From contig OZ244937.1 of the NCBI GenBank assembly GCA_965222075.1, positions 4,800,001 through 4,864,000 on the forward strand: a stretch of 64,000 nucleotides of DNA, in the 5' to 3' direction. The notes beneath the pieces are model-generated. The model was not told the origin of the DNA, searched no databases, and saw nothing but the letters and a program-made list of their open reading frames with translations. The stretch comes from Candidatus Latescibacterota bacterium. Its GTDB lineage: Bacteria > Latescibacterota > UBA2968 > GCA-2709665. The position numbers and the translations under genes are program-made. Below, piece by piece: positions 14,385 to 39,994 of this stretch. Positions within the stretch are counted from its first letter, which is position 1. Each line of letters starts with the position of its first letter.

Positions 14385-15536
14385 TTATATCCACACAGCG
14401 TCTTCGGCCAATAGGTTGGAGAACCGGGAGAACGAAAAAACCTCGATACCGTCTGCGGTTTGCAATTCAGGCCCTTCGGGATAGACCACCATACGCCGGC
14501 GCAGTCCCTTCAGGCCGGCCAGCGCTCGCAGCCCCTTGCACCAGGCTTCGGCAAACGTGTTACCGGATTTTACCTCGATTGCGACGAAATCCTCTCCGCG
14601 CTTGAGCAGAAAGTCGACCTCGGTCTGTCTCTGGCCGGCGATTCCCCAGTAGAAGAACTCGTCACACAGGTTGCGGTAGTCTCCGTAGGCCCGGATCAGC
14701 TGGGCGACCAGCCCCTCAAATAGAGCTCCGCGTTCCTCTGGAGCGGGGGAGCCGGACACCCGTTTCATCGCCCGCACAATGCCGGGGTCGCACCAGTACC
14801 ATTTGGGCAACCTGCGTTCGCGCACACGCAGCCTGGCTTCATAGGCAGGCAGCCGGAAGCACAGGAGCGTTTCCTCCAGGATATCCAGATAGCCGATCAC
14901 CGTTGTGCGGGCAACACCGGCTTCCCTGGCGATGTTGGTCACATTCACAGTCTGGCCGTGGAACAGGGCAGCAACGGGCAGGAAGCGTGCAAATCCAGGC
15001 AGGTTGCGCACCAGGGCTTCGGCCTGAATCTCTTCCTTGAGATACATCTGAGCGTAGGCCGTGAGCGTCTCCTCTCTTGCATCTGAGTCCCACACAATCG
15101 GCAGCAGGCCATATCTCACCGCGTCGTCAAGTTTGAAATGTTCGGCCAGTTCCTCAGGAAGGAATGGGTGCATAGCACGATACAGAGCCCGCCCGGCAAG
15201 CAGGTTGGCACCTGCACGCTTGAGCTTGCTCGCGCTTGATCCACACAAAACAAAGCGCAGTCCTTTTTCTTCAATAAAACGATGTACTTCGTTGAGAAGG
15301 GCGGGCAACCGCTGCATCTCATCCAAAACCACCCAGCGGTCGTCAGGAACAGCCCTCAGTTCTGCCGCAAAAAGCCCGGGATTGGCCAGCAGACGCTGGT
15401 AAACACCTTCGGCGAGCAGGTCGATGACGTGGGCATCGGGAAAGTTGATTCGCAGATAGGTGCTCTTTCCAACGCCGCGCGGCCCCACCAGGAAGAAGCT
15501 CTGCGGGGGTGATTCAAAGATACGAGGGATTCTCAT
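14385..15536 (-). CDS. AAA+ ATPase (AAA_14) with C-terminal DUF4143 / PD-(D/E)XK-like domain
   Basis: GPRGVGKST, LDEMQR, GSSA, LAGRA, GALFEG, EVDFLL..AIEVK. Confidence 0.9.
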   Translation of the reverse strand: MRIPRIFESPPQSFFLVGPRGVGKSTYLRINFPDAHVIDLLAEGVYQRLLANPGLFAAELRAVPDDRWVVLDEMQRLPALLNEVHRFIEEKGLRFVLCGSSASKLKRAGANLLAGRALYRAMHPFLPEELAEHFKLDDAVRYGLLPIVWDSDAREETLTAYAQMYLKEEIQAEALVRNLPGFARFLPVAALFHGQTVNVTNIAREAGVARTTVIGYLDILEETLLCFRLPAYEARLRVRERRLPKWYWCDPGIVRAMKRVSGSPAPEERGALFEGLVAQLIRAYGDYRNLCDEFFYWGIAGQRQTEVDFLLKRGEDFVAIEVKSGNTFAEAWCKGLRALAGLKGLRRRMVVYPEGPELQTADGIEVFSFSRFSNLLAEDAVWI

Positions 15537-15769
15537 TTGTCCACCTTGCCGTCATTTTTCATAGTAAATTGATGATAATATATACATATTACACAAAATT
15601 GTCAAGAACCAGGCGGTCCGAGGAGATGTAAGAGAACAGAGGCGCGCTGGTCTGGGAACTGGCGGATGACGTTAAAACCGAAATCGACACCTCCCGAACA
15701 AATGCGTCGAGGGAGATGACATCGTGCGCCCGGTATGGATGGGCCGTGCGGAATTGATCCCCTTTTCCC

Positions 15770-15905: not shown

Positions 15906-15943
15906 AGGGGTTACGTAAGCAAGGCGTAACCCCTATTTTTTTC
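15906..15943 (+). terminator. Intrinsic terminator after tRNA-Ala
   Basis: AGGGGTTACG-loop-CGTAACCCCT followed by a T run. Confidence 0.8.
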
Positions 15944-16001: not shown

Positions 16002-16844
16002 TCACCTTTGATTCTTCAGGAAGTTTTGCAGATGCGCCCTCAATGGCGCTATGTCGCACCTCCCATCCCTGGAGGCATAGGGGAATGCACCCTTCTTCCG
16101 CATGAGGTTTCCGTTGCGTTCGTGGAAGCGTCCGTCTCTGGCCACCAGCTGCCCCCACCAGTTGAAGGAGTAGCCGACCTCGGCGACGGAGCGATCATCA
16201 GCGGCCCACCCGGGTGGGAATAATACCAGGAATGGAGGGAACGAATTCAGCCAGCTGTTGCAGCCGATTTGCCGCAGTCCCGGCTGCCTGGCGCAGGCCG
16301 AGTCCAAGAGGTTCAGCAATTCGGTGGCCCGCGCTTGCATGTCCCGAAACGGCGAGTCTGGCATGCAGCTGTTTGCGATATGAATATCGAGGGAATCGCT
16401 GCTTTGGGAATGCTCACACGCGAAGATGCCCGATAGCTGATCTTCGGGCAGGGGGTATGGGGTATACCCGGAAGGGAGCCACGGCCACGCCTTGATATCC
16501 CTTTCCATTCGGGGCTCGAGGTGCGACAGGAGGAGCTGGAGGCCCGTTTCCTCAAAATGCTCCGCTGTTGTGGGAGAATCCCGGCACAAGGCTTGCAGCT
16601 GAGAGGTAATTTGTCCAAAAGGCGCCGCCGCCCACGGGAAGTCGGCCTGGGATGGATGGGACACCCCATCCCAGAATTCAGTCAGACGGTATACCGGCGT
16701 CTGGCTGCTCAGAACCTCCACGATGGAACCCCCGTCATTGGAATGGCGCCAGGAGTACCACAGACTCAAACGCGTGATTTTCAAGACGAAATCGCGTCTA
16801 TTCGCCAGCGTGTAGGGTGATTTCGGCGTCATTTCGGAACTCAT
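16002..16844 (-). CDS. Hypothetical protein (280 aa), last gene of the amidohydrolase/Rieske/NHL run
   Basis: Start overlaps the upstream stop by 4 bp; natural protein-like composition; family not recognised. Confidence 0.7.
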   Translation of the reverse strand: MSSEMTPKSPYTLANRRDFVLKITRLSLWYSWRHSNDGGSIVEVLSSQTPVYRLTEFWDGVSHPSQADFPWAAAPFGQITSQLQALCRDSPTTAEHFEETGLQLLLSHLEPRMERDIKAWPWLPSGYTPYPLPEDQLSGIFACEHSQSSDSLDIHIANSCMPDSPFRDMQARATELLNLLDSACARQPGLRQIGCNSWLNSFPPFLVLFPPGWAADDRSVAEVGYSFNWWGQLVARDGRFHERNGNLMRKKGAFPYASRDGRCDIAPLRAHLQNFLKNQR

Positions 16845-17710
16845 CCTGAGACCCGCACGAATTTCTGCAGCCGTTGTCCCCGATTGATTTCGGCCACGTA
16901 GATACTCCCTTCATCGTCCACGCAGATCCCGTGCGCCGACTTAACGTCTGGGCCTGAGAATCGGCTGATTCGTTCTCCCTCCGGCGACCAGACGCTGACG
17001 CTATCACCCCCATGCTCTGCCACATAGATCATATTGTCCTTTGCAATGCACACCCCCCCCGGACCGACCAGGTCCGTCCACTCCTCGATAAACGCACCGT
17101 CCGAATCGAAGATCTGGATCCGGTTATTCTCCCGGTCGCAGACCAGCACCCGGCCCGTTCTGTCGCAGTCGATGTTGTGGACCACGGCGAACTGGCCGGG
17201 GCCGTTGCCCCCTTCGCCCCACGAAAACAGGTGCTTCCCCTCCTTTGAGTACTTGTGCACGCAGCGGTTGCCGTAGCCATCCGAAACGTACATCGACCCA
17301 TCCGGGCCGATCGCGCCCCCGGTCGGTATGTTGTACTCGCCCCGGTAGTGTGTCATACCGGCCACCCCGGGTCTTCCCCATTCTCGTTCCATTTCGCCCA
17401 GCCGCGTGTACCTGCGCACGATGTGCTGGAGCGCGTCGACCAGATAGACCTTGTCGCCAGGACCGATAAAAATCCCGTGGGGCTCACTTACCAGAGGTGA
17501 GGTGAGGCCGAACTCTCCGTATCCCCACGACGTGATGAAATTCCCCGCCTTATCGAACACAATTACCGGATGCTTCCCGCGTGTGAATGCGTAGATTCGC
17601 CCCTGGGAATCGACCGCCGCATCGGAGACCAGGGAAAAGACCCATCCCTCTGGAAGATTTCCCCACCCCTCCACGGCTTCGTATTTAAAATCTCCCTGTC
17701 CCAACGCCAT
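16841..17710 (-). CDS. NHL-repeat beta-propeller, peptidyl-alpha-hydroxyglycine alpha-amidating lyase (PAL)-like family
   Basis: RGKHPVIVFD, PHGI, YVSDGYGN, GPGQF..VH, DRENNRIQIFD, HGICVD; RBS AAGGAGG. Confidence 0.88.
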   Translation of the reverse strand: MALGQGDFKYEAVEGWGNLPEGWVFSLVSDAAVDSQGRIYAFTRGKHPVIVFDKAGNFITSWGYGEFGLTSPLVSEPHGIFIGPGDKVYLVDALQHIVRRYTRLGEMEREWGRPGVAGMTHYRGEYNIPTGGAIGPDGSMYVSDGYGNRCVHKYSKEGKHLFSWGEGGNGPGQFAVVHNIDCDRTGRVLVCDRENNRIQIFDSDGAFIEEWTDLVGPGGVCIAKDNMIYVAEHGGDSVSVWSPEGERISRFSGPDVKSAHGICVDDEGSIYVAEINRGQRLQKFVRVSG

Positions 17711-17849
17711 GGTAAACCTCCTTACCGGCTGTAAAATAATGGGTTGGAATACTTAACTTTGCCATTGAGGCAGGCTCCATTATCTCAGAAGATATATGCA
17801 CAACTACTTATTTCTCCCTTTTTGTACCTTGAAGTTGCCGCACACGACG

Positions 17850-18233
17850 TCACGGGCGGGGGGCAAGATAGAGGACGATTTTGTCGCCTTCCAGGAAGAC
17901 GGGATACGTTCTGACCCGGAGGGTTTCGTCGCACAACGCACGTCCCGTTTTGATGTCGAATTCCCACTGGTGCCAGGGACATTTGAGGATCTCGCCTTCC
18001 TGCTGGTGGTCAACCCGGTAGACATCAGATGCGACCACAAGGGGGCGGAGCCTGCCGCGGCAGAGGGGGCCTCCCTTGTGGGGACAGAGGTTTCGGAGGG
18101 CGTGGAAGTTTCCGTTGATGTTGAAGATACCGATTCCCCGGCGGGCGATCTCGACGATTTTCCGCTGGCCAGGGGGCAGGTCGGCGGCATCTGCAACGAC
18201 GTATCGAGTCTTTCCACCAAGGTCAGAGTCCAT
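17850..18233 (-). CDS. Rieske [2Fe-2S] ferredoxin
   Basis: CPHKGGPL...CPWHQWEFDIKTG. Start at 18233 or 18248, overlapping the amidohydrolase stop. Confidence 0.93.
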   Translation of the reverse strand: MDSDLGGKTRYVVADAADLPPGQRKIVEIARRGIGIFNINGNFHALRNLCPHKGGPLCRGRLRPLVVASDVYRVDHQQEGEILKCPWHQWEFDIKTGRALCDETLRVRTYPVFLEGDKIVLYLAPRP

Positions 18234-19350
18234 AGAGTTCCGTGGCATTTCCGGCCATCACCCGGCGCCGAAGGGGTTCGTCGAATCCGGTGAGAAGCGT
18301 GGCGGGTTCGTCCCAGTCCCAGTGGGGGTAGTCGCTGGCGTAGATCAGGACTTCATCGGCGTGCAGCCATGCCAAGAAGGTCTCAAGGTCGGCGGCCGTT
18401 GGGGGCTGAAGCATGGGCTGGGTTCCAAAACGGATGTGCTGGCGGAGATAGTCGCTGGGCAGGCGCTTGACCCAGGGGGTGTAGTCTCGCAGGGCCTTCC
18501 AGTCGGCATCCATATGCCACATCAGGCCGGGTACCCAGAAGATGTCCTGCTCAATGAAAAAGAACCGGAAGTTGGGGAACTTTTCGAACACCCCTTCGCA
18601 GATGAGGCTGACCACGTGTGCCATGGCGACCTGGGGCCGGGCCATTCGCATCTCCAGGTAGTAAGAGGGATATCCGGCTGCGGTGGGGGGACCTGCGACG
18701 CCGGCGCCCTCGCTGCCGAAGTGGACACAGACGGGCAGCCCCTGGCGTTCGCAGGCGGCGTAGATGGGGTGGTAGAAGCGGTTGCCAAAGGGAAGACGCG
18801 CCCCGGCAGGCATTAGAACCTGGACAAATTCGGAGCGGGGACCGAGGCGGTCGATTTCATTGACAGCCTGCTCGGGGTCTGTGGGTGCAATATGAATGGA
18901 TGCCCGAAAACGGGAATCGGCCGAGACCCAGGTTTCCAGGGTCCAGTCGTTAAATGCCCGGCAGTAGGCCGCCGCGTAGTCGCAGTTGGGGTGAACGGCT
19001 GCCGCGTAGGGGCCGCCGGTGAGGACGGCGATGTCGATATCGTAGGCGTCCAGGTGTTTTTGACGGGCCACGTCGACAACCGTGGCAGGGTTCACATCGG
19101 AATCGGTCCAGAGGTCGTGGCGGCTCCCCTTCCCGGGCATATTGGTATACCCAATTTGAGGCATCATGCTGTCGAAGTCCTGGATGTATTCAACGTAATG
19201 CCTGGGAAGGTAGGGGAAGAGGGCTTTGGGGCCGGGCAGTAAGTGGTGCACATCGCAGTCGATCAGGTGGATCGGTTTTGCCGTTTCCCGGGCAGAGGAC
19301 GGCTGCAGCCTGCGGGTGGGTTCTGCGATTTTGTTCACAGGGGTTGACAT
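18223..19350 (-). CDS. Amidohydrolase-2 family metalloprotein (candidate amidohydrolase-related dinuclear oxygenase)
   Basis: IDCDVH, AFNDW, PIYAAC..LPVCVH, EGVFEKFPN, SDYPHWD. Confidence 0.88.
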   Translation of the reverse strand: MSTPVNKIAEPTRRLQPSSARETAKPIHLIDCDVHHLLPGPKALFPYLPRHYVEYIQDFDSMMPQIGYTNMPGKGSRHDLWTDSDVNPATVVDVARQKHLDAYDIDIAVLTGGPYAAAVHPNCDYAAAYCRAFNDWTLETWVSADSRFRASIHIAPTDPEQAVNEIDRLGPRSEFVQVLMPAGARLPFGNRFYHPIYAACERQGLPVCVHFGSEGAGVAGPPTAAGYPSYYLEMRMARPQVAMAHVVSLICEGVFEKFPNFRFFFIEQDIFWVPGLMWHMDADWKALRDYTPWVKRLPSDYLRQHIRFGTQPMLQPPTAADLETFLAWLHADEVLIYASDYPHWDWDEPATLLTGFDEPLRRRVMAGNATELYGL

Positions 19351-19441
19351 AGGGACCTCCGGGAGAAGGTTTTGGAAGTTCGTTGTGCAGGTTCCTCTTC
19401 AGTTCCCAAACCGTGCGCTTGAAAAGCCCTTCTGGTGAATA

Positions 19442-20503
19442 TCAGCGTGCAGGCGCACGCCATACGACCACCTCATCTTTCTCCACGTTCCATTTCGTTC
19501 CCAGCGGCGTCGAAAGTCCTCCGACGGTGTGGACGATCTGTTGCCCCTCCGCACTTTCCAGCGACACGATTCGGGGTTGCCCCACCTCGTTTCTCCAGAC
19601 AGGCGCAAAGGAGACTTTTGTCAACGCCTTTTCCCGCACGGCGCAGTGGACCAGCAGTCCGTCCCGCTGGAAAGCGGCCATCCGTTCCCATCCAAAGATG
19701 AAGTTTCCCAGGCTGTAGAAGATCGCCCGCCCGTTGTAGATCTCCATCCCCTGCGGCACGTGCGGGTGGTGGCCGATGACCAGGTCTGCCCCGGCGTCGA
19801 TGGCAGCGTGTCCGATTGCCGTCTGGTAGGCGACCAGTTTCTGGCTGCCCGAGACGCCCCAGTGGCAGGAGACCACGAGGATGTCCACGCGTTCTCGAAG
19901 CGCCACCACATCCTCCTGCATTTTTTTCAGTTCATCCTCGTCGGGCCAGGAGACGACAATCGCCGGAGCGCCGGGCATCTCCAGCACGCGGTGGTGGGGG
20001 CGATAGGCGGTATGCCCCTTAATCGTTGCCACGCCCGGCTGTGCCGGTCCGGCCGCGTGCCCGACAGGCCAGAATACGGATGTATAGGCCAGGAATCCGA
20101 ACCGCGTCCCCCTTTTTGTTAGCACGACCGGCTGCCGGGCCGCCTCCCGGTTCTCACCGGCCCCGGTATGGGCGATGCCGTGCCGGTCCAGGTGTGAGAG
20201 CGATTCCAGGATGGCCTCGGTGCCGTAGTGGACGTTGTTGGCGCATCCTACCGCATCGAATCCCGCGGCGGCCAGCCCCTCGACGGTTTCGCGGTTGGGA
20301 TGAAACCAGCCCTGTTTGTAGGGGATCTCCACGGCCGGATCTGAAAAACAGCCCTCACAGTTGCCGAATAGCAGGTCGGCCGCGTCGAAAGTTTCCTGCA
20401 CATGCGCAAAGGGCGCATTCGGGTCCGTGACATTTCTCAGATTGACATCGCCCACCAGGATGATGGAGCGCGCGTCGCCGTTCAGACCGATCCATCGGGC
20501 CAT
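19442..20503 (-). CDS. CapA/PgsA family metallophosphatase-fold protein
   Basis: VGDVN, GNCE, ANNVH, HWG, DLVIGHHPHVPQ, YSLGNF. Confidence 0.9.
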   Translation of the reverse strand: MARWIGLNGDARSIILVGDVNLRNVTDPNAPFAHVQETFDAADLLFGNCEGCFSDPAVEIPYKQGWFHPNRETVEGLAAAGFDAVGCANNVHYGTEAILESLSHLDRHGIAHTGAGENREAARQPVVLTKRGTRFGFLAYTSVFWPVGHAAGPAQPGVATIKGHTAYRPHHRVLEMPGAPAIVVSWPDEDELKKMQEDVVALRERVDILVVSCHWGVSGSQKLVAYQTAIGHAAIDAGADLVIGHHPHVPQGMEIYNGRAIFYSLGNFIFGWERMAAFQRDGLLVHCAVREKALTKVSFAPVWRNEVGQPRIVSLESAEGQQIVHTVGGLSTPLGTKWNVEKDEVVVWRAPAR

Positions 20504-20947
20504 TGCTGCCTCCTGAGCGTTTTTGGGTAAGCAAACAGGTCGACAGGCCATGAAGACTCACACGGAGGCACAGAGAACACAAAGAAAAAGATCTTGGTGC
20601 TTTGTGTGAGAATTAGGGGGGGTGCTGCAAAATATAAGCGTCCCATTCCCGTGTCAATGCCAATCTGGTCCGGTCCTGCCGGATTGTTCGGGGTAGGGGA
20701 GATTCTGCTTGACAGATGAATGCTTTAAGGGATAATTATGAGAGCGTGCGCCGATTCAGGCCCGGATTGGATGCTTAGAAGCTGCGGACATGGGGCGCGT
20801 GGGCGGGTGAGGTTCGGCGAATTGGGGACATCGGCGATTTTGAGGGCTGGAACAGAGATGCAGAGAAATACGCCGCCGCTTTTGAAGGGCTGCTGGAGGG
20901 TTTGGGGGTGGCGGAGGCCGCCCCAGAGGGTGAGAAAGGAGTTTGTT

Positions 20948-21481
20948 TTGAGGTTTGCTCGTGCGTACGTGCAATTTGTGAACCGGTTGAACGAAATAAT
21001 CGGTTTTGGGGTATCATGGGTGACCACGCTGCTGGTGCTTGTGGTTTGTTATGATGTGTTTACACGCTATTTGCTCAAAAACAGTGTCGTGGCCGTGCAG
21101 GAACTGGAATGGCATCTGTTTGCCGTTATTTTTTTGATCGGCGCGGCCTATACCTTAAAACAGGACGGGCATGTGCGGGTGGACGTGTTCTATACGCGGT
21201 TTTCCCCCAAGACCAGGGCCTGGGTCGATTTTACCGGAAGCCTTATTTTATTGATCCCTTTCTGCCTGGTTGCTGTGTGGAGTTCGAAAACGTTTGTTGT
21301 CAACGCCTATATGATCGGTGAAACTTCGCCGGATCCGGGCGGGCTGCCGGCGCGGTTCGTGCTGAAGGCGGTGATTCCGATCGGGTTTTTTCTGCTGATT
21401 TTACAGGGGTTCTCGCTGGCGCTTCAATCGCTGTTTGAGGTTGTGGGTATGGAAGGCGACGACGGGGAGGCCGGCGCATGA
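20948..21481 (+). CDS. TRAP transporter small permease (DctQ)
   Basis: QELEWHLF, GAAYTL..DGHVRVDVFY, SPDPGGL; RBS AAGGAG then TTG. Confidence 0.92.
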   Translation: MRFARAYVQFVNRLNEIIGFGVSWVTTLLVLVVCYDVFTRYLLKNSVVAVQELEWHLFAVIFLIGAAYTLKQDGHVRVDVFYTRFSPKTRAWVDFTGSLILLIPFCLVAVWSSKTFVVNAYMIGETSPDPGGLPARFVLKAVIPIGFFLLILQGFSLALQSLFEVVGMEGDDGEAGA

Positions 21482-22797
21482 TTGAGGCGATGCCCCTGAT
21501 TCTTTTTGCGGTGCTATTCATCCTGCTGTTGGCCGGGTATCCCGTGGCGTTTACGCTGGGCGGCGTGTCGTTCATTTTGGGGTATTTGACCTTTGGTATG
21601 CATTTTTTTAACCTGCTCCCCTTGAGAATATGGGGGGTGATGACCAATTATGTGCTGATTGCCGTGCCGCTGTTTGTCTATATGGGGGTGATGCTGGAGA
21701 AATCGGGTCTGGCGGAGGAGCTGTTAGAGACGATGGCGCTGCTGTTTGGACGGCTGCGCGGCGGGCTGGCGATTTCGGTGGTGGTGGTGGGCGCGATGCT
21801 GGGGGCTTCAACGGGCATCGTAGGGGCCACGGTGGTGACGATGGGGCTGTTGAGTCTGCCTACGATGCTGAAGCGGGGCTACCGTCCGGAGTTGTCAACC
21901 GGGACAATTTCGGCGTCTGGGACGCTGGGGCAGATCATTCCCCCCAGCATCGTGCTGGTGCTGCTGGGCAGTATTCTCAACGTTTCGATCGGCGATATGT
22001 TTATGGGGGCGGTGATTCCAGGGTTTGCGCTGGTCCTTCTGTACCTGATCTGGATCGTGGTGATCGCAATGACCAAACCGGATTGGGCGCCGACCATGCC
22101 CAAAGAAGAGTTAGATCGGTTCAGGGGCCGGGCGATGGTAAGACGGGTGCTGCAGGCGTTTGTCCTGCCTTTTCTTCTGATTTTTGCGGTGCTGGGGTCT
22201 ATTTTTGCCGGGATTGCCTCGCCGACCGAGGCCGCCGCTGTGGGGGCTTTAGGCGCTACGGTGTTGACGATTGTTCAGGGGAAGTTTTCCTATGAGACGT
22301 TAAAATCGGTTATGGCCGGAACCACCCACCTGACCTGTATGGTGTTCATCATCTTAGTGGGCGCCACGTCGTTTGGGCTGGTGTTTCGGGGGATGCGGGG
22401 GGACGACTACCTCACCCGGCTCATCCTGGACGCGAATATGGGGCCCAATACCTTTCTGGCCCTGGTGATGGTGATTATTTTTATTGCCGGATTTTTCATC
22501 GATTTTATCGAGATTACGTTTATTATCGTGCCGGTTGTGGCGCCGATTTTCGTTACGTTCGGCGTGGACCTGCTGTGGCTGGGCATTCTGATTGCGATGA
22601 ATCTGCAAACGTCATTTCTGACGCCGCCGTTCGGGTTTTCCCTTTTCTACCTCAAAGGGGTTGCCCCTCCCGAAATCCGAACCGGTCAGATCTACCGGGG
22701 AATTGTTCCTTTTATTGTGATTCAACTGGTCGGGCTGGGGCTGGTGATTTGCTTCCCGGAGATGGCGACTTGGCTGCCGCAATACCTGACGAGATAA
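21478..22797 (+). CDS. TRAP transporter large permease (DctM)
   Basis: GYPVAF, ASGTLGQIIPPS, PTEAAAVG, NLQTSFLTPPFG. Confidence 0.95.
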   Translation: MIEAMPLILFAVLFILLLAGYPVAFTLGGVSFILGYLTFGMHFFNLLPLRIWGVMTNYVLIAVPLFVYMGVMLEKSGLAEELLETMALLFGRLRGGLAISVVVVGAMLGASTGIVGATVVTMGLLSLPTMLKRGYRPELSTGTISASGTLGQIIPPSIVLVLLGSILNVSIGDMFMGAVIPGFALVLLYLIWIVVIAMTKPDWAPTMPKEELDRFRGRAMVRRVLQAFVLPFLLIFAVLGSIFAGIASPTEAAAVGALGATVLTIVQGKFSYETLKSVMAGTTHLTCMVFIILVGATSFGLVFRGMRGDDYLTRLILDANMGPNTFLALVMVIIFIAGFFIDFIEITFIIVPVVAPIFVTFGVDLLWLGILIAMNLQTSFLTPPFGFSLFYLKGVAPPEIRTGQIYRGIVPFIVIQLVGLGLVICFPEMATWLPQYLTR

Positions 22798-22871: not shown

Positions 22872-23990
22872 CTACAGGCTGATCTTGGCGTAATACACCT
22901 TCTCGGAGACCTGGGACCAACCCGTGACGTTTTTTCGGAAGGCGCTGAAGGACTCGAATACTTTCTTGCTCATCGGGTCGGTTGCCACTACTTCGTCCAC
23001 GACTTCCTGTGAGAATTTCCTCAGAGTTTGCAGCACTTCATCCGGGAACTGCCGGAGCTGGACGTTGTGTTCATTGATCAATTTTTTCATATAGATGTTG
23101 TTTTTGGATTCAAACTCGGAGAGGGTCCACACGTTGGACCGCGCGGCAGCGGTCCGGACAATGGTCCGGAGGTCTTTCGGCAGCTGCTCAAAGGCGTTTT
23201 TGTTGGCGAACAATTCGATGACGGTGCCCGGTTCGTGCCAGCCGGGGTAGTAGTAATATTTGGCGGCTTTGTAAAATCCCATCAGATAATCGTGATAGGG
23301 GCCGACCCACTCGGTTGCGTCGATGACGCCGCGCTCCAGGTTGGTATAGACCTCGCCTCCGGCAGACAGGACGGGCGATCCTCCTGCTTTATCGATCACT
23401 TTGCCGCCCAGGCCGGGGATCCTCATTTTCAGGCCTTTGAGGTCGCCTACGGTGTTGATCTCTTTGTTAAACCAGCCCCCCATCTGGAAGCCGGTGTTGC
23501 CCACCGGCATGGGGACCAGGTTGAAGGGCATGTAGAGTTCCTCCCAGAGCTTAAGCCCGCCTCCGCCCAGGATCCAGGCGTTCATCTGCTGGGCGTTCAT
23601 GCCGAAGGGGACCGCCGCAAAGAATTGGGACGCGGGCACTTTGCCGGCCCAGTAGTAGGAGGCGCTGTGGCACATTTGGGTGACACCCTGGCTTACCGCC
23701 TCGAACCCCTCAAAGGCAGGGATCAGTTCATTCGCGCCGTAGACGTGGATTTTGAGCCGGCCCTCGGACATTTCTTCCACCCATTGGGCCAGCATATCGG
23801 CGCTTTCGCCCAGGATGGGAAAGTGGGGCGGCCAGGTGGTGACCATTTTCCACTCATAGGTCTTGGTTGAACGGACGGACGGGGCTTCCTCCTGTTTGGG
23901 GGATGCGCAGCCAGCCACCAGCGCGGCCCCACCGGCCAGGGTGGCGGCCGAGGCTTTTTTAAGAAAGTCACGCCGTTCGAGCTTGTCCAT
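22872..23990 (-). CDS. TRAP substrate-binding protein (DctP/TakP-like, 2-oxoacid type), Tat-exported lipoprotein
   Basis: ERRDFLK Tat motif, LVAGC lipobox, WKMVTTWP, GNTGFQMGGWF, KMRIPG, DATEWVGP, YYYPGWHEPG. Confidence 0.93.
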   Translation of the reverse strand: MDKLERRDFLKKASAATLAGGAALVAGCASPKQEEAPSVRSTKTYEWKMVTTWPPHFPILGESADMLAQWVEEMSEGRLKIHVYGANELIPAFEGFEAVSQGVTQMCHSASYYWAGKVPASQFFAAVPFGMNAQQMNAWILGGGGLKLWEELYMPFNLVPMPVGNTGFQMGGWFNKEINTVGDLKGLKMRIPGLGGKVIDKAGGSPVLSAGGEVYTNLERGVIDATEWVGPYHDYLMGFYKAAKYYYYPGWHEPGTVIELFANKNAFEQLPKDLRTIVRTAAARSNVWTLSEFESKNNIYMKKLINEHNVQLRQFPDEVLQTLRKFSQEVVDEVVATDPMSKKVFESFSAFRKNVTGWSQVSEKVYYAKISL

Positions 23991-24406
23991 TGAGATCCTC
24001 CAGGTGGCATTCCCAGGTCCGGTCACTGATCTTCACCCAACAGTTCGTCCACGGCCGCCAGCATCTCCCGGAGCCATATCCCGCATCACAGGGTCATCGT
24101 CAACCCTGGGGCGACCGTCGAATATCCCGTCTGTCAGCTCCGGCGGCGGATTGATTCTCAGAGGCTGTCACACGTTTTGGTCATCCTACCAAATATAATG
24201 TGACTCCGGCTTTCGTGCAAGAAAAAGGCCACAGGGTCGCTCCTCCTGGGGATCGGTCGCTGGGCGCAGCTGCGCATGTTGAATTTTCTATTGTTGGTCA
24301 AAATCTGTTTGACAAACAGCGGTTTGAGTTTCCGCTTGAACCATGCCCGCGATTGTATTATTATGGATGCGTTGGTTCAACCCGTCTGCGGTTAGAGGGA
24401 GGGCGT

Positions 24407-30005: not shown

Positions 30006-30758
30006 TCAGAGGGTGGCTTCCACACTGTCGGGCCGGTGGCCCACAGAGGGCACCGCCAGGATGCGCTTCTGCTGTTCGGTGAGGTCGCTGAATTCGTCCA
30101 GGGTGTAGTAGTTTTGAGACCAGGCGGAGTGCCCGGGGCTGTATTTGTAGAGGAGCGACCTCCGTTCGCGGTCGGCCGTCCAGGGCAGGGTGCCGTGGAT
30201 GAGGGCCTCGGTGAAGATGAGGGCGTCGCCCGCTTCGGCTTCGGGCTGGACAACGTAGTGCGCCGGGCGTTCGAAGGCGCGCACGTCTTTTGGAAGGCTG
30301 GTGACGAAGTTGGATTTGTGGCTGCCGGGGATACAGGCAAACCCGCCGTCGCCGGCCTTTGCAGGGGCAAGGAAGTAGGTGACGACGGTGAGGCCGTTTC
30401 GCATGACGCCGTCTTTGTATTTGTACCAGTGATCCGGCGCCCGGTCGGTTTCCCCGCCGTGGAGGCCGCCCCGTTTTCCGCCTTTTGTCATAAAGATGCA
30501 GTAGTCGTGGTCGATTCTGAACTTGGGGCCTAAGAGTTCGGAGAGGTAGGGGACGATTTTGGGATGGTCGATGAGGTCCTGAAAGGCGGGCCCCCAGAGG
30601 GTGACCCGGCTGACGCCGCGGGTGCCGGTTTCGTCGTAATTGGAGGGAAAGACCTCGTCGGTGGTGGCGTTCATGTCGGCCACTTCCCGGGGGGTGAGGA
30701 CGTTTTTGACGACGAGGTAGCCTTCCAGGTCGAACATGAATTTTTCTTCAGAGGTCAC
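30006..30758 (-). CDS. Phytanoyl-CoA dioxygenase (PhyH) family Fe/2OG enzyme
   Basis: FDLEGYLV, IPGSHK, AGDALIFTEALIHGT, RRSLLYKY; GTG start with RBS AGGAG. Confidence 0.88.
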   Translation of the reverse strand: MTSEEKFMFDLEGYLVVKNVLTPREVADMNATTDEVFPSNYDETGTRGVSRVTLWGPAFQDLIDHPKIVPYLSELLGPKFRIDHDYCIFMTKGGKRGGLHGGETDRAPDHWYKYKDGVMRNGLTVVTYFLAPAKAGDGGFACIPGSHKSNFVTSLPKDVRAFERPAHYVVQPEAEAGDALIFTEALIHGTLPWTADRERRSLLYKYSPGHSAWSQNYYTLDEFSDLTEQQKRILAVPSVGHRPDSVEATL

Positions 30759-30799
30759 AGCTGTGCTCCTTTCCTGATATGGATTTTTCGGGAAGCCGT

Positions 30800-31135
30800 T
30801 CAAAACCCTTTGAGCCATTCAAAATAGGCTTCGAGCCATTCAAAGCCTTCCGGGAGGGGTTCAGCCCACTCCAGCGATGTGATGTCTATGGGATAGGTTT
30901 TGCCTTTGTGTTTGCAGATGGTTTTGAGGCCCAGGCCCGATTCCGGCCACTCGAACCCCGTTATTTCCACAGTTTCTCCCAGGAGTTTCGCTTTGAATGG
31001 ACAGACAACGTTGTCTTCGATCATGGTCAGAAGACCCGTGTGCTGCTCGTCTTCTCCATAGGCATCTACGGTTGCCTCCTCGATGAGTTCCTCAAGGCGT
31101 TCGGGATCTGTGATCGTCTTCCTGCGTTTTGCCAT
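30800..31135 (-). CDS. CcbP-like (calcium-binding family) small acidic protein
   Basis: LIEEATVDAYGEDEQ..G....IED...PF.A...G, W+EAY..W pattern. Confidence 0.75.
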   Translation of the reverse strand: MAKRRKTITDPERLEELIEEATVDAYGEDEQHTGLLTMIEDNVVCPFKAKLLGETVEITGFEWPESGLGLKTICKHKGKTYPIDITSLEWAEPLPEGFEWLEAYFEWLKGF

Positions 31136-36062: not shown

Positions 36063-36875
36063 CTAAGCTGTCTCCTTACAGCGGTAGATCATGGGGCAGT
36101 ACGCTGGATTGTCGATGTAGGCCATATGCCCTTCCCTGGACCGGGTCGCCGGGCTGGATTTCTCCGTGCGCATGTGGATCGCAAAACTCCGCCTCGGTTC
36201 TGCTGACCGGTTGGGGCCGCTGCCGTGGTAGGTCAGGTTGTGGTGGAAGCTGACGCCTCCGGGCGGCAGGATGACGTTGACCTCTTCCCAGGTCTGGCCG
36301 GGGGGGATGGCAATTCCATCGCGCAGGGCTTCGAGGTCTTGCTCGTAGAAGAAGCCCTGGTCGAGCAGGCCCCATTTGTTTGACCCACGCACGAGCCTCA
36401 TGGGGCCGGAATCCGGGGTGACGTTGCTCAGGGCGACCCAGGCAGTGAAGAGTTCGCTTCCTTCCTCCCAGTCCTTCCAGTACTGTGCGTCTTGATGCCA
36501 GCCAACGTTTTGGCTCCCTTCCGTATCCCGGGCAAGAGGGGGCTTGTGGAGCAACTGGCCCCACCAGGCCTGGATCCATTTTGCGCCCGTGATCGCCGCG
36601 GCCAGCTCCGCAATGGCCGGATGGGTGAACAGGTCCATGATTGCGCGGTTGGACCCCTGGGGCACGTCGATTTTGCCGAGTTTTTGAGGGTCGTCTCCCG
36701 GCTTCCAATAGCATTTGTGGGGCGGTAGGCCGGTTTCGTAGCGGCCGAATCTGACGGCATCCATGCCTGCAATTGCGCGCTGAATGAGGTCGTCGGGGAT
36801 GACCGGCTGTGCGCAGATGTAAAAGCCGTCCGATTCAAATTGGGCGCGGGCTGTTGCGAGTTCCCGGGTGTGCAT
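36063..36875 (-). CDS. Phytanoyl-CoA dioxygenase (PhyH) family Fe/2OG enzyme
   Basis: WHQD..YW, TAWVAL, GPMRLVRGS, HHNLTYHGSGPN...RR. Confidence 0.9.
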   Translation of the reverse strand: MHTRELATARAQFESDGFYICAQPVIPDDLIQRAIAGMDAVRFGRYETGLPPHKCYWKPGDDPQKLGKIDVPQGSNRAIMDLFTHPAIAELAAAITGAKWIQAWWGQLLHKPPLARDTEGSQNVGWHQDAQYWKDWEEGSELFTAWVALSNVTPDSGPMRLVRGSNKWGLLDQGFFYEQDLEALRDGIAIPPGQTWEEVNVILPPGGVSFHHNLTYHGSGPNRSAEPRRSFAIHMRTEKSSPATRSREGHMAYIDNPAYCPMIYRCKETA

Positions 36876-36986: not shown

Positions 36987-38624
36987 CTACCACCCGACCG
37001 CATATCCGTCCCGCCTCGGATCCGAGCCGCCGATAAGGGCGCTGGATTCGGGGTCAATGAGTATGGCCTGCGCACTGCCGGGACCGTCCCAGTCTCTTAG
37101 GATCTGGAGTTCATGCCCTTTTTGGGCGAGTCCTTCACGGACATCTCCGGGGAACCGGCCTTCCAGCTGCAGGACGTCCGCACAGGTGTGGGGGATCGTG
37201 GATTCCATCGGGTTTTGCAGGTTGCGCCAGCGGGGGGCCTCAACAGCCTCCTGGGGGGTCATGCCGAAGTCGAGGATGTGCGTGATGAGCTGGAGGTTGG
37301 TTTGCACCTGCGTGTCCGCGCCCGGGGTGCCGCAGACGAGGAGGGGTTTGTTGTCTTTTGTTACGATGACGGGATTCATGGTGTGGCGCACCCGCTTGCC
37401 GGGCATGAGGCAGTTGGGGTGATCGGCGTCCAGGTGCCAATAGGTCATCCGGTTGTTGAGCAGGATGCCGGTGTTTCCCGCAATGAGGCTCGAGCCGAAC
37501 CCGGACTGGATGCTTTGCAGGACACAGATGGCGTTTCCCCACCGGTCGGCGACGCAGAAACAGGTGGTGTCTTCAAACGATTCGGGCGAACCGGAGGGGA
37601 CGTCGGTGAGCGCCCGGTTGGGGTCGATGCGTTCGGTTTGCCGGGTGGCGTAGGCTTTGGAGAGCATGCCTTTGAGGGGGATGTCGCCCCACCTGGGATC
37701 GGCCATGTATTTTTCCCGGTCTGCAAAGGAGAGTTTTTTGGCTTCGACCATAATGTGGATGCTTTCGGCGGTGTTGCAGCCCAGGGACCGCAGGTCGAAG
37801 TTTTCGACGATGTTCAGTTCCTGCAGGAGAATGTGGCCGCTGGAGTTGGGGGGCGTTTCGTAGACACGGTGGCCCCGGTAGGTTGTGTGGATGGGATCGT
37901 CCCAGTGGGCGTGGTGGTCGGCGAGGTCTTTTTTGGTGAGCAGCCCTTCATAGGCCTCGCTGAATTTGACGATTTCGCGGGCGATTTCTCCTTCGTAGAG
38001 GGTGCCGCGTCCTTCTGCTGCGATTTTTTGCAGGGTTCTGCCGAGGTCTTTTTGATACAGGATTTCTCCGGGGTTAAGCGGCCGGCCGTCGCGGGTGAAT
38101 ACGGCGCGGGTGTAGGGGTCGGAGGCGAAGCGCTCGTTTTCGTTTTTGAGCGATGCGGCGAATTTGTGGCTGACGGGGAAGCCGTTTTCGCACAGCGATA
38201 CGGCAGGGTCGAATACCCGATCGAGGCTGAGTACGCCGTAACGCTCGTGGGCGATGAGCCAGCCGTCCACCAGCCCGGGGACCGAGACGCTGCGGATGCC
38301 TTTCATCGGGATGCCGCCGCTTTCGATGTAGAGGTCGCGGGTTGCCGCAGAGGGGGCGGCGCCGGTGGCGTTCACACAGGTTAAGGCGCCTGTTTCCGCC
38401 CAGTGAATGAGGAGGAATCCGTCGCCGCCAACGCCGGAGCTGGCCGGTTCGACCACGCCCAGCGCAGCGGCGGTTGCGATGGCGGCGTCTATGGCATTGC
38501 CACCGGCCATCAGGATCTGGATGCCGGCCTGAGAGGCGAGCAGGTGGCCGGATGTGACCATGCCGTTTCTACCCATAACCGGGGGACGATATGCTGAAAA
38601 ATGAACACCGTGTGGAGATTGCAT
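36987..38624 (-). CDS. ggt: Gamma-glutamyltransferase family
   Basis: GGNAIDAAIA, GVGGDGF, SVPG, catalytic Thr in DTTCF..D..GNA, PGKR..HT, GTPGADTQ.Q, GSDPRRDG. Confidence 0.93.
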   Translation of the reverse strand: MQSPHGVHFSAYRPPVMGRNGMVTSGHLLASQAGIQILMAGGNAIDAAIATAAALGVVEPASSGVGGDGFLLIHWAETGALTCVNATGAAPSAATRDLYIESGGIPMKGIRSVSVPGLVDGWLIAHERYGVLSLDRVFDPAVSLCENGFPVSHKFAASLKNENERFASDPYTRAVFTRDGRPLNPGEILYQKDLGRTLQKIAAEGRGTLYEGEIAREIVKFSEAYEGLLTKKDLADHHAHWDDPIHTTYRGHRVYETPPNSSGHILLQELNIVENFDLRSLGCNTAESIHIMVEAKKLSFADREKYMADPRWGDIPLKGMLSKAYATRQTERIDPNRALTDVPSGSPESFEDTTCFCVADRWGNAICVLQSIQSGFGSSLIAGNTGILLNNRMTYWHLDADHPNCLMPGKRVRHTMNPVIVTKDNKPLLVCGTPGADTQVQTNLQLITHILDFGMTPQEAVEAPRWRNLQNPMESTIPHTCADVLQLEGRFPGDVREGLAQKGHELQILRDWDGPGSAQAILIDPESSALIGGSDPRRDGYAVGW

Positions 38625-38638
38625 AGCGTTTCCTGACT

Positions 38639-38664
38639 GTAGGGGCGATGCTTGTGATCGCCCT
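38639..38664 (+). repeat. GTAG-type REP palindrome
   Basis: GTAG followed by GGGCGAT-GCTTGTG-ATCGCCC, the architecture of RAYT-associated REPs; only one copy in the window. Confidence 0.6.
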
Positions 38665-38713
38665 TTACGGTTTGATTGTTCGCGGTGGGGGTTTGACTCC
38701 GCGCCTCTGTGGT

Positions 38714-39994
38714 TCAAAAAGATCGAAACAGCTTCGCATAGGGCATCGGGTCTGAGAAGATGCCGCCGCTTTGACGGTAGTACTCATTGTCTAAGACAAA
38801 AGCGCCGGATCGGGGTTTGAGCCAGGTCGCGTCCGGGATGGGGTATGCCGCGAGAAGGTCGGGCCAGGTGGCGTAGGTTTCGGGGCCGTTGGATTCCAGG
38901 ATGCCGCCCCTGACACCGGGGAATGCGGGCAGGCGGGCGATGACGTTTTTGTTCCATTCCACAAGGGTGGGCACACAGGCGTTGTCCGCCACAAAACAGT
39001 AAGCCCCGGCCTCGGCGGCGGCGGCGACCATCTGAAAGGTGAGGGAGAGGGTCTTGCCGGCCGGTTTGAGGGCGACAGCCCCGTATCCCTGCTGGATTTT
39101 GGCGTTGATGTCCCGGACGCTGTGGAGGCTCTCGTCTGCGGCGAATCTGGCCGGGAGGTCCGTGACGTCGACTTCCAGGGTTTCGTCAAAGGGTTCTTCG
39201 AGGAGGATGATGCGGTCGAGCATGCCGATTTTTTGGGCGTGGTCGAGCAGCCGGGCGATGTTTTCTTTTTTCTTATACCGGCCGTTGGCGTCCAGGTAAT
39301 AGAGGACCTTTCCGGAGTCGGTCATCGGGGTCTCGCAGGCGCGGGCGGCCTTGTGGATTCGGGTCAGGCAGTCCATGTCTTTGCACAGCATTTCGGATTC
39401 GCTTCCAGGCTGGCCGATCTTTATCTTCAGGATACAGGCGCCGCCGTCTAAGACGCTCTGGACGACGTCCATAGGGAGGGCGTAGGAAACCAGGGGGACG
39501 CCGGCAAGATGGGTCTGGCGGTGGGAGAGATAGGGGCGATAGGGCAAAGGGATGAGGTCATCGAAGGTGTCGATGCCGTTTTCCTTAGCGTAGAGCATCC
39601 AGGCGGCGTTGTCCAGGGCGACGAGGGAGATGAGAGAGAAGGTGAGCCGCAGGTTGGGGTTGTGGGTCACGGTCTTGCCATAATCGTGCACCTGCGGGAG
39701 GAGATCGGCCAGGATGGCCATGGGGTCTGTATAGTTTCGGCGTTTGACCTGCTGCAGGGCGTATTCCAAAAGGGCGGTCATCAAGACGTTGCCGCCGACT
39801 TCGGTATGCGCTAAGAAGACGTCCCCATCGGCCCACAGGACGGCCAGGCCGCCCAGGCCGAAGGCCTCGTGTTCGGCATCGTCCCGCAGGCGGACGGCAA
39901 GGTTCCATTTTTCGTGGAAGGCGGCGCCTTTGAAGCCGAAGGGGCGCGCAAAGGGTTCGCGCTGGATTTCGAGGTCGGTGTGAACGATATGCAT
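38714..39994 (-). CDS. Enolase superfamily protein (mandelate racemase / Ala-Glu epimerase-like)
   Basis: KIKIG, YLDANG, EEP, ADES, ALK motifs; start MHIVHTD at 39994. Confidence 0.85.
   Translation of the reverse strand: MHIVHTDLEIQREPFARPFGFKGAAFHEKWNLAVRLRDDAEHEAFGLGGLAVLWADGDVFLAHTEVGGNVLMTALLEYALQQVKRRNYTDPMAILADLLPQVHDYGKTVTHNPNLRLTFSLISLVALDNAAWMLYAKENGIDTFDDLIPLPYRPYLSHRQTHLAGVPLVSYALPMDVVQSVLDGGACILKIKIGQPGSESEMLCKDMDCLTRIHKAARACETPMTDSGKVLYYLDANGRYKKKENIARLLDHAQKIGMLDRIILLEEPFDETLEVDVTDLPARFAADESLHSVRDINAKIQQGYGAVALKPAGKTLSLTFQMVAAAAEAGAYCFVADNACVPTLVEWNKNVIARLPAFPGVRGGILESNGPETYATWPDLLAAYPIPDATWLKPRSGAFVLDNEYYRQSGGIFSDPMPYAKLFRSF

Follow-up and report, generated by a model that had tools for sequence, protein, structure and literature searches.

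Does a run of five genes in which a gene for an amidohydrolase-fold protein overlaps one for a stand-alone Rieske ferredoxin encode a single oxidative pathway, or a monooxygenase lying beside genes that belong elsewhere? The initial annotation of this locus, which forms part of the 64,000-nucleotide stretch of DNA analysed here (the window), proposed an oxygenase related to AibH and PtmU3 that would cooperate with a PAL-like lyase as a copper-free analogue of the PHM+PAL pair. The oxygenase reading is right but has already been published (JACS 2024, JACS 2026), and the proposed partnership with the lyase fails on comparison with other genomes.

The five-gene run and its flanks

When considered from the point of view of gene order, the ORF listing of the window agrees with the layout described earlier, i.e., five co-directional ORFs on the minus strand. 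These and the flanking features are the following:

22872-24026, minus strand: TRAP solute-binding protein of keto-acid-binding type with a TAT signal (Pfam DctP, 3.2e-62; TIGR01409)
20738-21481 and 21478-22797, plus strand: TRAP membrane subunits DctQ (Pfam DctQ, 2.1e-26) and DctM (Pfam DctM, 1e-87), divergent from the operon
20629-20657, minus strand: σ70-like promoter match 5' of the gene for the CapA-like protein (TTGACA, 17 nt, TATTTT; 10/12), a consensus match only
19442-20551, minus strand: CapA-like protein of the CapA/PGA_cap family with a metallophosphatase fold (369 aa; Pfam PGA_cap, 1.7e-61)
18223-19350, minus strand: predicted dinuclear monooxygenase (Mn/Fe or Fe2) of the amidohydrolase-related type, orthologous to SfbO (375 aa; Pfam Amidohydro_2, 2.5e-29; PDB 8SM6)
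17850-18248, minus strand: SfbR-type stand-alone Rieske [2Fe-2S] ferredoxin (132 aa; Pfam Rieske, 3e-16)
16841-17710, minus strand: PAL-like six-bladed NHL β-propeller (289 aa; Pfam NHL, 3.1e-20)
16002-16844, minus strand: 280-aa protein with a helical N-terminal half and a weakly GNAT-like C-terminal half (no Pfam or NCBIfam match)
15906-15934: hairpin of 11 base pairs directly 3' of the last gene, listed as terminator-like on the plus strand

The Pfam scores of the four named genes of the run are well past chance. The CapA-like gene is present as annotated, but its end had been placed at position 20503, which corresponds to the internal Met17 of an ORF running to 20551. Both overlaps were described correctly, the Rieske ORF extending 26 nt across the stop of the oxygenase gene and the NHL and 280-aa ORFs sharing 4 nt, while gaps of 91 nt and 139 nt separate the CapA-like gene from the oxygenase gene and the Rieske gene from the NHL gene, respectively. 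Site prediction placed one promoter-like site in the run, 5' of its first gene, and no terminator-like site anywhere in the 139-nt gap; together with the tight co-directional packing, this makes co-transcription, and a genus-specific functional link, conceivable. Contigs from the RNA libraries of a single study match each of the five genes exactly over part of its length, and the hairpin at 15906-15934 possibly marks the end of the transcription unit, a role that we infer for the minus-strand operon. With regard to the transporter, the closest solved chains of its DctP protein are 4pet, 5cm6, 2hzk and 7ug8 ('Ketoacid-binding protein'), with E-values from 5.5e-92 to 4.4e-83, against just 1.3e-6 for the isethionate-binding DctP 8t9t.

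The oxygenase and its Rieske partner

The amidohydrolase-fold protein aligns over residues 21-375 with SfbO of Litorilinea aerophila (PDB 8SM6, E 1.3e-195), the two being identical at 269 of 355 ungapped positions (~76%), and it is, on this sequence evidence, an SfbO orthologue. The remaining solved AROs follow in the order 8SM7, 8SM9 and 8SM8 (1e-83 to 1e-63), the 6m1w chains AibH2 (3e-53) and AibH1 (8e-51), PtmU3 (6OMQ, 1.1e-14) and DitZ (8UYR, 7.4e-9). The quoted motifs were both located, DCDVH with D33-V-H35 and SDYPHWD with D340-Y-P-H343-W344-D345, the latter followed by W346, and they preserve the two ARO signatures D-x-H and D-x-P-H-x-D, so that the earlier assignment to the AibH/PtmU3-related dinuclear oxygenases is borne out. 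The accessible text of PMC13154177 covers the definition of these motifs, the SfbO tetramer, SfbR as its partner and the role of W343. Features of low-potential AROs are likewise found in the window protein, namely Val at γ-1 and Trp at γ-4 and γ-5. The sulfonate-pocket residues N70, R235, R238 and W344, which correspond to N67, R232, R235 and W341 of SfbO (an offset of 3), are invariant in 74/74 aligned orthologues; for the published fifth pocket residue, 'Y280', there is no Tyr at the mapped number, the nearest being Y290 of the window protein, also invariant.

The Rieske protein contains C55-P-H57 and C90-P-W-H93, and its gene matches SfbR. Linkage of the two genes was followed in 80 SfbO loci from other genomes, spanning several phyla and 64-97% identity. 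A Rieske homologue lies downstream in 76 of them, directly so in 65 and, on the same strand, 0.8-7.9 kb away in 11; none was found in the examined DNA of the other four. As had been stated, one amidohydrolase subunit is encoded, which fits the SfbO homotetramer, and Pfam reveals no ferredoxin reductase family among the 42 ORFs of the window.

SfbO itself was found through the logic of Rieske neighbours; its structure has been solved, it prefers Mn/Fe, and it hydroxylates the N-α C-H of MES and PIPES in an O2-dependent reaction that gives sulfoacetaldehyde (PMC10811679). The published enzyme acts on 2-aminoethylsulfonate amines, the hemiaminal collapsing without a lyase, and nothing in the evidence points to the γ-glutamyl substrate that had been proposed. 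A literature search returned no native substrate of the SfbO family in print, and PMC10811679 gives none.

With orthology, motifs, pocket residues and a conserved Rieske linkage observed for the window genes, the core of the locus is very probably a self-contained, two-gene O2-dependent monooxygenase made up of an SfbO-type ARO and its dedicated Rieske protein SfbR, the other neighbours having been acquired within the genus rather than being conserved components. By orthology with the Litorilinea enzyme, the oxygenase, probably a homotetramer, would build a carboxylate-bridged cofactor of Mn/Fe (or Fe2) and would draw its electrons from the Rieske protein, the reductase presumably being encoded elsewhere. 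An anionic sulfonate-type group would be bound in the pocket of Asn, two Arg and Trp, and the C-H next to nitrogen would be hydroxylated to a hemiaminal, yielding an aldehyde (sulfoacetaldehyde in the case of the surrogate substrates) and an amine. That the same activity occurs in the window organism we infer, with metal content, O2 dependence and chemistry taken from the orthologue only. Against this reading, the genome contains no Xsc above the cut-off (best 257 bits vs. 676) to account for what would become of any sulfoacetaldehyde.

The neighbouring genes and their possible roles

The assignment of the NHL protein to a PAL-like family holds, as judged from the NCBI name of a 74%-identical relative, from the family profile, which aligns collinearly with the PAL core 3fvz over a single full-length stretch (E 2.7e-31), and from its AF2 model (pLDDT 92.6), for which Foldseek ranks 3fvz third (TMq 0.82, 23% identity), TRIM-type NHL domains equalling the PAL core on fold score. 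H78, Y146, H178, R193 and H260 are invariant in 28/28 sequences of the family, and we take these His, Tyr and Arg residues to fit a PAL-type metal site. No signal peptide is evident. The 280-aa protein, whose family occurs in 63/168 genomes of the phylum, is modelled by AF2 with a pLDDT of 87, and GNAT acyltransferases head its Foldseek and VIA results, although weakly (E 0.047; Z 6.8, residues 126-265); part of its Atlas clusters carry GNAT_C/NAT_N.

Neither of these genes, nor the CapA-like gene, follows SfbO beyond the genus. Neighbourhoods of the other SfbO genes vary by lineage, and the NHL, 280-aa and TRAP genes recur in only 1/80 of them, the locus L001 from the same genus, with an SfbO 97% identical. 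A close CapA-like gene is present in 0/80, the single match showing 25% identity, and the stretch 19415-20622 of the window, containing that gene, has no counterpart even in the otherwise 95-97% identical L001; the CapA-like gene is strain-variable. In a genome of a sister genus (G042), SfbO and SfbR are 78% and 81% identical to the window proteins, and a 93%-identical NHL orthologue is encoded ~1.5 Mb away from them, next to an IS3-type transposase gene and a GHL6-like gene. Since the DNA of the NHL gene is closer to the window (91%) than that of SfbO/SfbR (82%), and given the transposase, a recent relocation is indicated. On this reading, the keto-acid-type TRAP transporter and the genes for the CapA-like, the PAL-like NHL and the GNAT-like protein are neighbours that were acquired within one genus.

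A possible, though rather unlikely, alternative is that the NHL and GNAT-like 280-aa genes form a small unit of their own, tied to the abundant catabolism of sulfated glycans and amino sugars in this genome and brought beside SfbO/SfbR by rearrangement. The 4-nt overlap of this pair, as opposed to the 139 nt between it and the Rieske gene, argues for such a unit, as do the transposase and the GHL6-like gene in G042 and the same-genome paralogues: three of the 280-aa protein have sulfatases, a GH127-like protein or acetyl-xylan-esterase-like hydrolases as neighbours, and those of the NHL protein adjoin a sulfatase (73-75% identity) or a heparinase II/III-like gene (41-44%). However, the pair is adjacent nowhere else examined, NHL being matched in 0/18 other loci with 280-aa homologues (~1.5 kb on each side), and the functions of both proteins are putative, with the GNAT assignment a weak one.

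Much less probable is the PHM+PAL analogue, in which SfbO/SfbR would hydroxylate the carbon beside the amide nitrogen of an N-acylated aminoethylsulfonate or amino acid, the NHL protein would cleave the stable carbinolamide, and the GNAT-like and CapA-like proteins would make or trim the N-acyl substrate. On the chemical side, SfbO hydroxylates the C-H α to nitrogen (PMC10811679) and so yields the very type of α-hydroxylated C-N intermediate on which a PAL acts if the nitrogen carries an acyl group; the packing of the genes, the PAL-like features of the NHL protein with its five invariant residues and the recurrence of the arrangement in the same-genus relative are also in its favour. Nevertheless, the analogy fails for want of a conserved linkage with the PAL-like gene, a result that the initial annotation had itself named as refuting it. 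This gene is missing from 79/80 SfbO loci, and metagenome loci with NHL homologues contain a Rieske gene in 0/80 and an amidohydrolase in 1/80 (24% identical). The distance between the orthologues in G042, the sulfatase and glycan-degradation contexts of the paralogues and the absence of the CapA-like gene from the sister strain weigh against it as well, and SfbO orthologues in the range of 64-81% identity retain this pocket and have no PAL-like neighbour.

Finally, an ordinary non-redox PF04909 hydrolase or decarboxylase with an unrelated Rieske gene, to which a generic Amidohydro_2 match without any NCBIfam model might point, can practically be dismissed in view of the ~76% identity to a dinuclear oxygenase known from both crystal structures and enzyme assays, both ARO-specific motifs, which the accessible text of PMC13154177 describes as absent from characterised hydrolases and decarboxylases of that family, decarboxylase matches that reach 1e-10 at best and are weaker by 180 or more orders of magnitude, and the Rieske linkage in 76/80 loci.

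Comparison with known systems

The CapA-like protein shares the PGA_cap domain with MslH, its closest solved chain (PDB 8GQ9, E 4.7e-22), but with 94 bits it falls far under the MslH equivalog cut-off of 700, and its gene lies in no lasso-peptide or poly-γ-glutamate context. Like the PAL core 3fvz, the NHL protein is a six-bladed propeller, and His, Tyr and Arg residues are invariant across its bacterial family; in contrast to it, the protein is predicted to be cytoplasmic, stands alone with neither a PHM domain or gene nor a conserved hydroxylase partner, and has Zn ligands that are only putative.

Among the AROs, PtmU3 and DitZ share the fold and the C-terminal motif with the window oxygenase, but they are diiron 'high-potential' enzymes that, according to the accessible text of PMC13154177, usually have no Rieske neighbour, whereas the window protein has low-potential features. 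AibH1H2/AibG/AibF of Rhodococcus wratislaviensis (6M1W, 8FUL), of the same superfamily, combines a Mn/Fe cofactor and a Rieske ferredoxin partner in aliphatic C-H hydroxylation (PMC10811679); unlike the window, which has one subunit and no reductase, it joins two amidohydrolase-fold subunits in a heteromer and includes a reductase in its operon, and the similarity to it is far lower than that to SfbO. The closest system is SfbO/SfbR of L. aerophila (PDB 8SM6, 8SMA, 9BU9, 9BUA; Liu et al., JACS 2024; JACS 2026). Although the host phylum is another one (Latescibacterota MAGs are the closest named relatives) and the gene neighbours differ, the two systems share ~76% identity over the full length of the oxygenase, D-x-H and D-x-P-H-W-D-W, the pocket of Asn, two Arg and Trp, and a layout in which the one oxygenase gene overlaps a small Rieske gene downstream of it.

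The operon and its predicted SfbO-type oxygenase

All five co-directional genes proposed by the initial annotation were found, every one on the reverse strand, the products of the first four carrying a Pfam family and that of the last carrying none; an NCBIfam scan returned nothing decisive beyond Pfam.

Genes of the operon, with Pfam E-values
19442-20551, (-): CapA-like (PGA_cap) protein, E 1.7e-61
18223-19350, (-): Amidohydro_2 protein, E 2.5e-29
17850-18248, (-): Rieske protein of 132 aa, E 3e-16, overlapping the Amidohydro_2 stop by 26 nt
16841-17710, (-): NHL-repeat protein, E 3.1e-20
16002-16844, (-): 280-aa protein, no Pfam family; 4-nt overlap with the NHL stop

Genes for the TRAP transporter proteins DctQ, DctM and DctP (assigned by Pfam) lie divergently upstream of the operon. 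At its other end, a perfect hairpin with an 11-bp stem, followed by a T-run, occupies positions 15906-15934, in the interval separating the final operon gene from its neighbour. Ferredoxin reductase families were not found by Pfam among the 42 window ORFs scanned, in line with the earlier remark that no reductase is encoded here. A gamma-glutamyltranspeptidase gene (36987-38717, E 3.7e-157) adjoins a PhyH dioxygenase gene (36063-36875), with another PhyH gene at 30006-30818; these genes are situated about 16 kb from the operon, and no tie to it was seen.

The match of the Amidohydro_2 protein to its family profile (PF04909, a TIM-barrel fold; E 2.5e-29) covers profile positions 1-289 of 289. 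In a search of solved structures, the protein matched SfbO of Litorilinea aerophila (PDB 8SM6) at E 1.3e-195, with residues 21-375 aligned without gaps to residues 18-372 of the chain and with 269 of the 355 positions identical, as counted in the alignment. The next matches are 8SM7, 8SM9 and 8SM8 (E 1e-83 to 1e-63), followed by the AibH1/AibH2 chains of 6M1W and 8FUL (about 1e-51 to 1e-53) and by PtmU3 (1e-14), and classical PF04909 decarboxylases match no better than 1e-10. SfbO was found by a search for PF04909 genes beside small Rieske genes; its dinuclear site is carboxylate-bridged, N67, R232, R235, Y280 and W341 hold a sulfate there, and the enzyme carries out the O2-dependent hydroxylation of the C-H adjoining N in MES and PIPES to yield sulfoacetaldehyde, its Mn/Fe form exceeding the Fe2 form by more than 7-fold (PMC10811679). 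PIPES is an unlikely native substrate according to the same authors (PMC10811679), and a full-text literature search found no paper naming one. In a 2026 follow-up (PMC13154177), SfbO is named a sulfonate beta-monooxygenase and described as a tetramer, the neighbouring Rieske protein is named SfbR, and W341 and W343 are said to tune the reduction potential and to take part in the contact with SfbR. That paper defines amidohydrolase-related dinuclear oxygenases (AROs) by an N-terminal D-x-H motif, which provides site-1 metal ligands, and a C-terminal D-x-P-H-x-D/E motif, which constitutes site 2 and has at least ~200 residues before it (PMC13154177).

Both motifs are recognizable in the window protein, whose residue conservation was assessed by aligning it with 73 orthologous ORFs (n=74). 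The N-terminal motif is D33-V34-H35, with the aspartate conserved in 73/74 sequences and the histidine in 74/74; position 34, Val in the window protein, varies to Leu, Ile or Met among the orthologues. The C-terminal site-2 motif, D340-Y-P-H343-W-D345, is invariant in all 74, and W344 and W346, which correspond to the gamma-4 and gamma-5 Trp of the Rieske interface, are present. Four of the five published sulfate/sulfonate pocket residues map onto the window protein and are conserved across the alignment, N70, R235, R238 and W344 being equivalent to SfbO N67, R232, R235 and W341; the fifth, Y280, maps by number onto an Asp, and the nearest Tyr, Y290, is invariant. The stand-alone Rieske protein, whose gene overlaps the stop of the oxygenase gene, carries the cluster ligands C55-P-H57 and C90-P-W-H93. 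Judged by sequence, the predicted oxygenase is not a new one, but a Latescibacterota-type orthologue of the published SfbO/SfbR family, a clade of low-potential AROs. The initial annotation was right to see an AibH/PtmU3-type oxygenase in this PF04909 protein and its Rieske partner, although the family had already been published; two redox-active metals and O2-dependent hydroxylation have been demonstrated for the orthologue SfbO only (PMC10811679).

Gene neighbourhoods of SfbO in other genomes

Eighty loci encoding SfbO relatives (64-97% identity) were taken from one-genome-per-species contigs, most of them belonging to MAGs named Latescibacterota, Poribacteria, Caldilineaceae/Chloroflexota or Gemmatimonadota, and were searched with all eight window proteins. 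The approximately 1,000 ORFs of these loci were also clustered, and the cluster representatives were scanned for families.

Homologues of the window proteins at the 80 SfbO loci
Rieske protein: 76/80; directly downstream in 65, co-oriented and 0.8-7.9 kb downstream in 11, absent from the available DNA of 4
NHL, 280-aa and TRAP genes: 1/80, a same-genus relative only (L001, with an SfbO 97% identical to that of the window)
CapA-like protein: 0/80 with a close homologue; one 25% match

Outside the genus, the surroundings of the gene change with the lineage. About 13 loci of a different Latescibacterota clade (L008-L020 and L026) share a block of genes for, in this order, an APH kinase, a PhyH protein, a Metallophos protein, SfbO, the Rieske protein, a second PhyH protein and an AAC(3)-like protein, in which the AAC(3)-like acetyltransferase gene is followed by genes for an FAD oxidase and an enolase-superfamily protein. 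This conserved block may hint at the native substrate class of SfbO. One of its PhyH proteins is weakly similar to methylphosphonate hydroxylase (1e-9). About 14 Poribacteria loci carry, in sequence, genes for a PLP decarboxylase, a UxuA-like protein, an acetolactate-synthase-type TPP enzyme, SfbO, the Rieske protein, MsrB and PorV, and the remaining loci show assorted arrangements. Several Poribacteria loci (L047, L060-L062, L065, L069, L072 and L073) have SfbO and the Rieske gene 2.4-3.6 kb apart, separated by inserted genes of the HEPN-domain and ORC/AAA types. The SfbO-Rieske pair is the only element conserved across the neighbourhoods.

Two apparent correspondences were discarded. The TPP enzyme encoded divergently from SfbO in the Poribacteria loci was considered as Xsc, but NCBIfam identifies it as an acetolactate synthase (PRK08322, 779 bits), with Xsc not among the top rows; in the source genome, which is 97.6% complete, the best score against the Xsc model (TIGR03457) is 257 bits, compared with a cut-off of 676 bits. 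The CapA-like protein, for its part, was considered as a counterpart of the Metallophos protein upstream of other Latescibacterota SfbO genes; BLASTP revealed no similarity (best E 4.2), and their common superfamily is no evidence of an equivalent role.

Even between close relatives (95-97% identical) the operon region is not constant. DNA comparison revealed that the same-genus locus L001 lacks window positions 19415-20622, containing the CapA-like gene, and 14429-15646, containing an AAA/DUF4143 ATPase gene; both stretches are insertions or deletions between these two relatives and represent strain-level gene gain or loss. The closest solved chain to the CapA-like protein is 8GQ9 (E 4.7e-22). 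Elsewhere in the source genome, about 3.4 Mb from the operon (G000:C1:1366876-1368366; L103:6835-8409), there is a second pair of Amidohydro_2 and Rieske genes, whose products share 39% and 43% identity with those of the window; flanked by genes for a glycosyltransferase and an FG-GAP protein, it indicates at least two ARO systems in this genome.

SfbO/SfbR is a free-standing two-gene module, distributed over lineages that include many MAGs named Poribacteria, Latescibacterota, Caldilineaceae and Gemmatimonadota, and the combination of a pocket invariant in the four residues that map with neighbours that change by lineage bears on the question of the family's native substrate.

The PAL-like NHL protein and its linkage to the oxygenase

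The NHL protein is a member of a large family, of which a search at E <= 1e-10 gave 2,814 relatives. Its family profile aligns with the rat PAL core (PDB 3FVZ) in one full-length stretch (E 2.7e-31; positions 8-285 against 7-318); TRIM NHL domains outscore 3FVZ in this search, but only as repeated partial stretches. With residues 1-125 alone as the query, TRIM NHL domains again came first, and 3FVZ was not among the matches listed. In a Foldseek search with the AF2 model (pLDDT 92.6), 3FVZ took third place; its query TM-score of 0.82 was the highest, other NHL propellers being essentially tied. The predicted fold of the protein is a six-bladed NHL beta-propeller, and its sequence runs collinear with the catalytic core of PAL. 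Invariant in 28/28 family members are H47, H78, H96, D144-G-Y146, H152, H178, C191-D-R193, N195, H260 and E274. In PAL, the Zn-binding His triad and the catalytic Tyr and Arg, reportedly described in the 2009 PAL structure paper, lie in PHG, DGY, VPH, DRENGRIQ and PHD motifs; the invariant H78, Y146, H178, R193 and H260 resemble these and are candidate counterparts. Of the paralogues in the source genome, the 73-75% copy is by a sulfatase gene and the 41-44% copy by a heparinase-like gene.

The initial annotation had proposed a copper-free analogue of the PHM and PAL pair, in which the oxygenase hydroxylates and the NHL protein cleaves the C-N bond, and had named the absence of conserved linkage with the PAL-like gene as grounds for refutation; that absence is what the comparative data show. 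An NHL gene occurs at a single one of the 80 SfbO loci. None of 80 metagenome loci with NHL-family relatives (32-49% identity; many contigs short) encodes a Rieske homologue, and one encodes an amidohydrolase, only 24% identical. When the whole family was searched with the NHL protein, an orthologue of 93% identity emerged in a genome of a sister genus (G042), in which the NHL gene is about 1.5 Mb from SfbO and SfbR, whose products share 78% and 81% identity with their window counterparts. There, the NHL copy (L220:9460-10335) adjoins a shortened Ldh_2 gene as well as transposase genes of the IS3 type, and SfbO/SfbR are flanked by genes for an ion channel, a canonical GNAT and a TPR protein and by an IS66 transposase gene. 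At the NHL locus, the DNA of this genome resembles the window over the NHL ORF alone (window 16849-17724, 91%), compared with only 82% for the SfbO/SfbR DNA; this difference, together with the IS3 genes beside the sister-genus copy, suggests that the NHL gene moved recently and on its own. Thus, the pairing with a partner alpha-hydroxylase expected of a PAL is not conserved for the NHL protein, and a literature search found no paper that connects an amidating lyase to dinuclear oxygenases.

Other neighbours and the reading of the operon

Within the phylum, 63/168 genomes encode homologues of the 280-aa protein, and the source genome has three paralogues (L104:6620-7504, L105:7042-7905 and L106:6816-7748). 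The genes next to these three encode sulfatases, acetyl-xylan-esterase-like hydrolases and a GH127-like protein, clusters that may place the family in sulfated-glycan catabolism. None of 20 family members has a Pfam match at E <= 1. For the AF2 model (pLDDT 87), the matches are weak but uniformly GNAT-type: the best Foldseek E is 0.047, with none at E <= 0.001; VIA gives Z-scores up to 6.8 over residues 126-265, nearly all of the top 50 rows being GNATs, although values below 8 can reflect a common arrangement. An Atlas look-alike search returned clusters partly carrying GNAT_C/NAT_N. For the binding protein of the TRAP system, the best matches (E 5.5e-92 to 4.4e-83) are 4PET, 5CM6, 2HZK and 7UG8 ('Ketoacid-binding protein'); the isethionate-binding DctP is much more distant (E 1.3e-6). 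The transporter was therefore rejected as a sulfonate importer and dropped as support for a taurine-type substrate.

Parts of the window are contained in runs labelled sponge metagenome, including four metatranscriptome libraries of one study, although the presence of a contig in an RNA library is no proof that the DNA is transcribed. Exact-match contigs from these four libraries fall within all five genes (for instance 16167-16584, 17397-17550, 17924-18123, 18664-18939 and 19707-19980), and one, 18101-18280, spans the SfbO/Rieske overlap. Among all contigs of the four runs, none matches exactly across the Rieske-NHL gap (17711-17849), which is uninformative on co-transcription; pieces at 17729-17809, with 3-6 mismatches and loose ends, probably derive from relatives.

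Taken as a whole, we consider it likely that the operon centres on an SfbO/SfbR monooxygenase acting on an anionic substrate. An SfbO-type enzyme with a Mn/Fe or Fe2 site would receive electrons through the Rieske protein from a reductase whose gene is elsewhere, and would hydroxylate the C-H adjoining N in a sulfonate-type substrate; the resulting hemiaminal would then collapse on its own, the other four gene products being recent neighbours. Tight gene packing and the lack of a predicted terminator keep one alternative as a candidate, namely a genus-specific coupling, in a sponge-associated genus, of SfbO/SfbR to a cytoplasmic PAL-like lyase and the GNAT-like protein. N-acyl aminoethylsulfonates, such as N-acyl taurines, would in that case be hydroxylated beside the amide N, and the PAL-like enzyme would split the stable carbinolamide into an amide and sulfoacetaldehyde. 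For N-acyl substrates this coupling is chemically attractive, but the rarity of an NHL gene near SfbO, the lack of a Rieske gene near NHL relatives and the separation of the genes in the sister genus make it highly improbable. If true, it would represent a copper-free bacterial counterpart of the PHM and PAL amidation pair caught during operon assembly; a functional pairing would be a case of pathway invention, which the comparative evidence renders unlikely.

The preferred assignment to an SfbO/SfbR monooxygenase also fits the subunit composition. The AibH1H2 heteromer is built from two paralogous amidohydrolase-fold subunits, whereas the operon contains a single Amidohydro_2 gene, as had been noted from the outset; one subunit agrees with the homomeric SfbO and not with the heteromeric AibH1H2.
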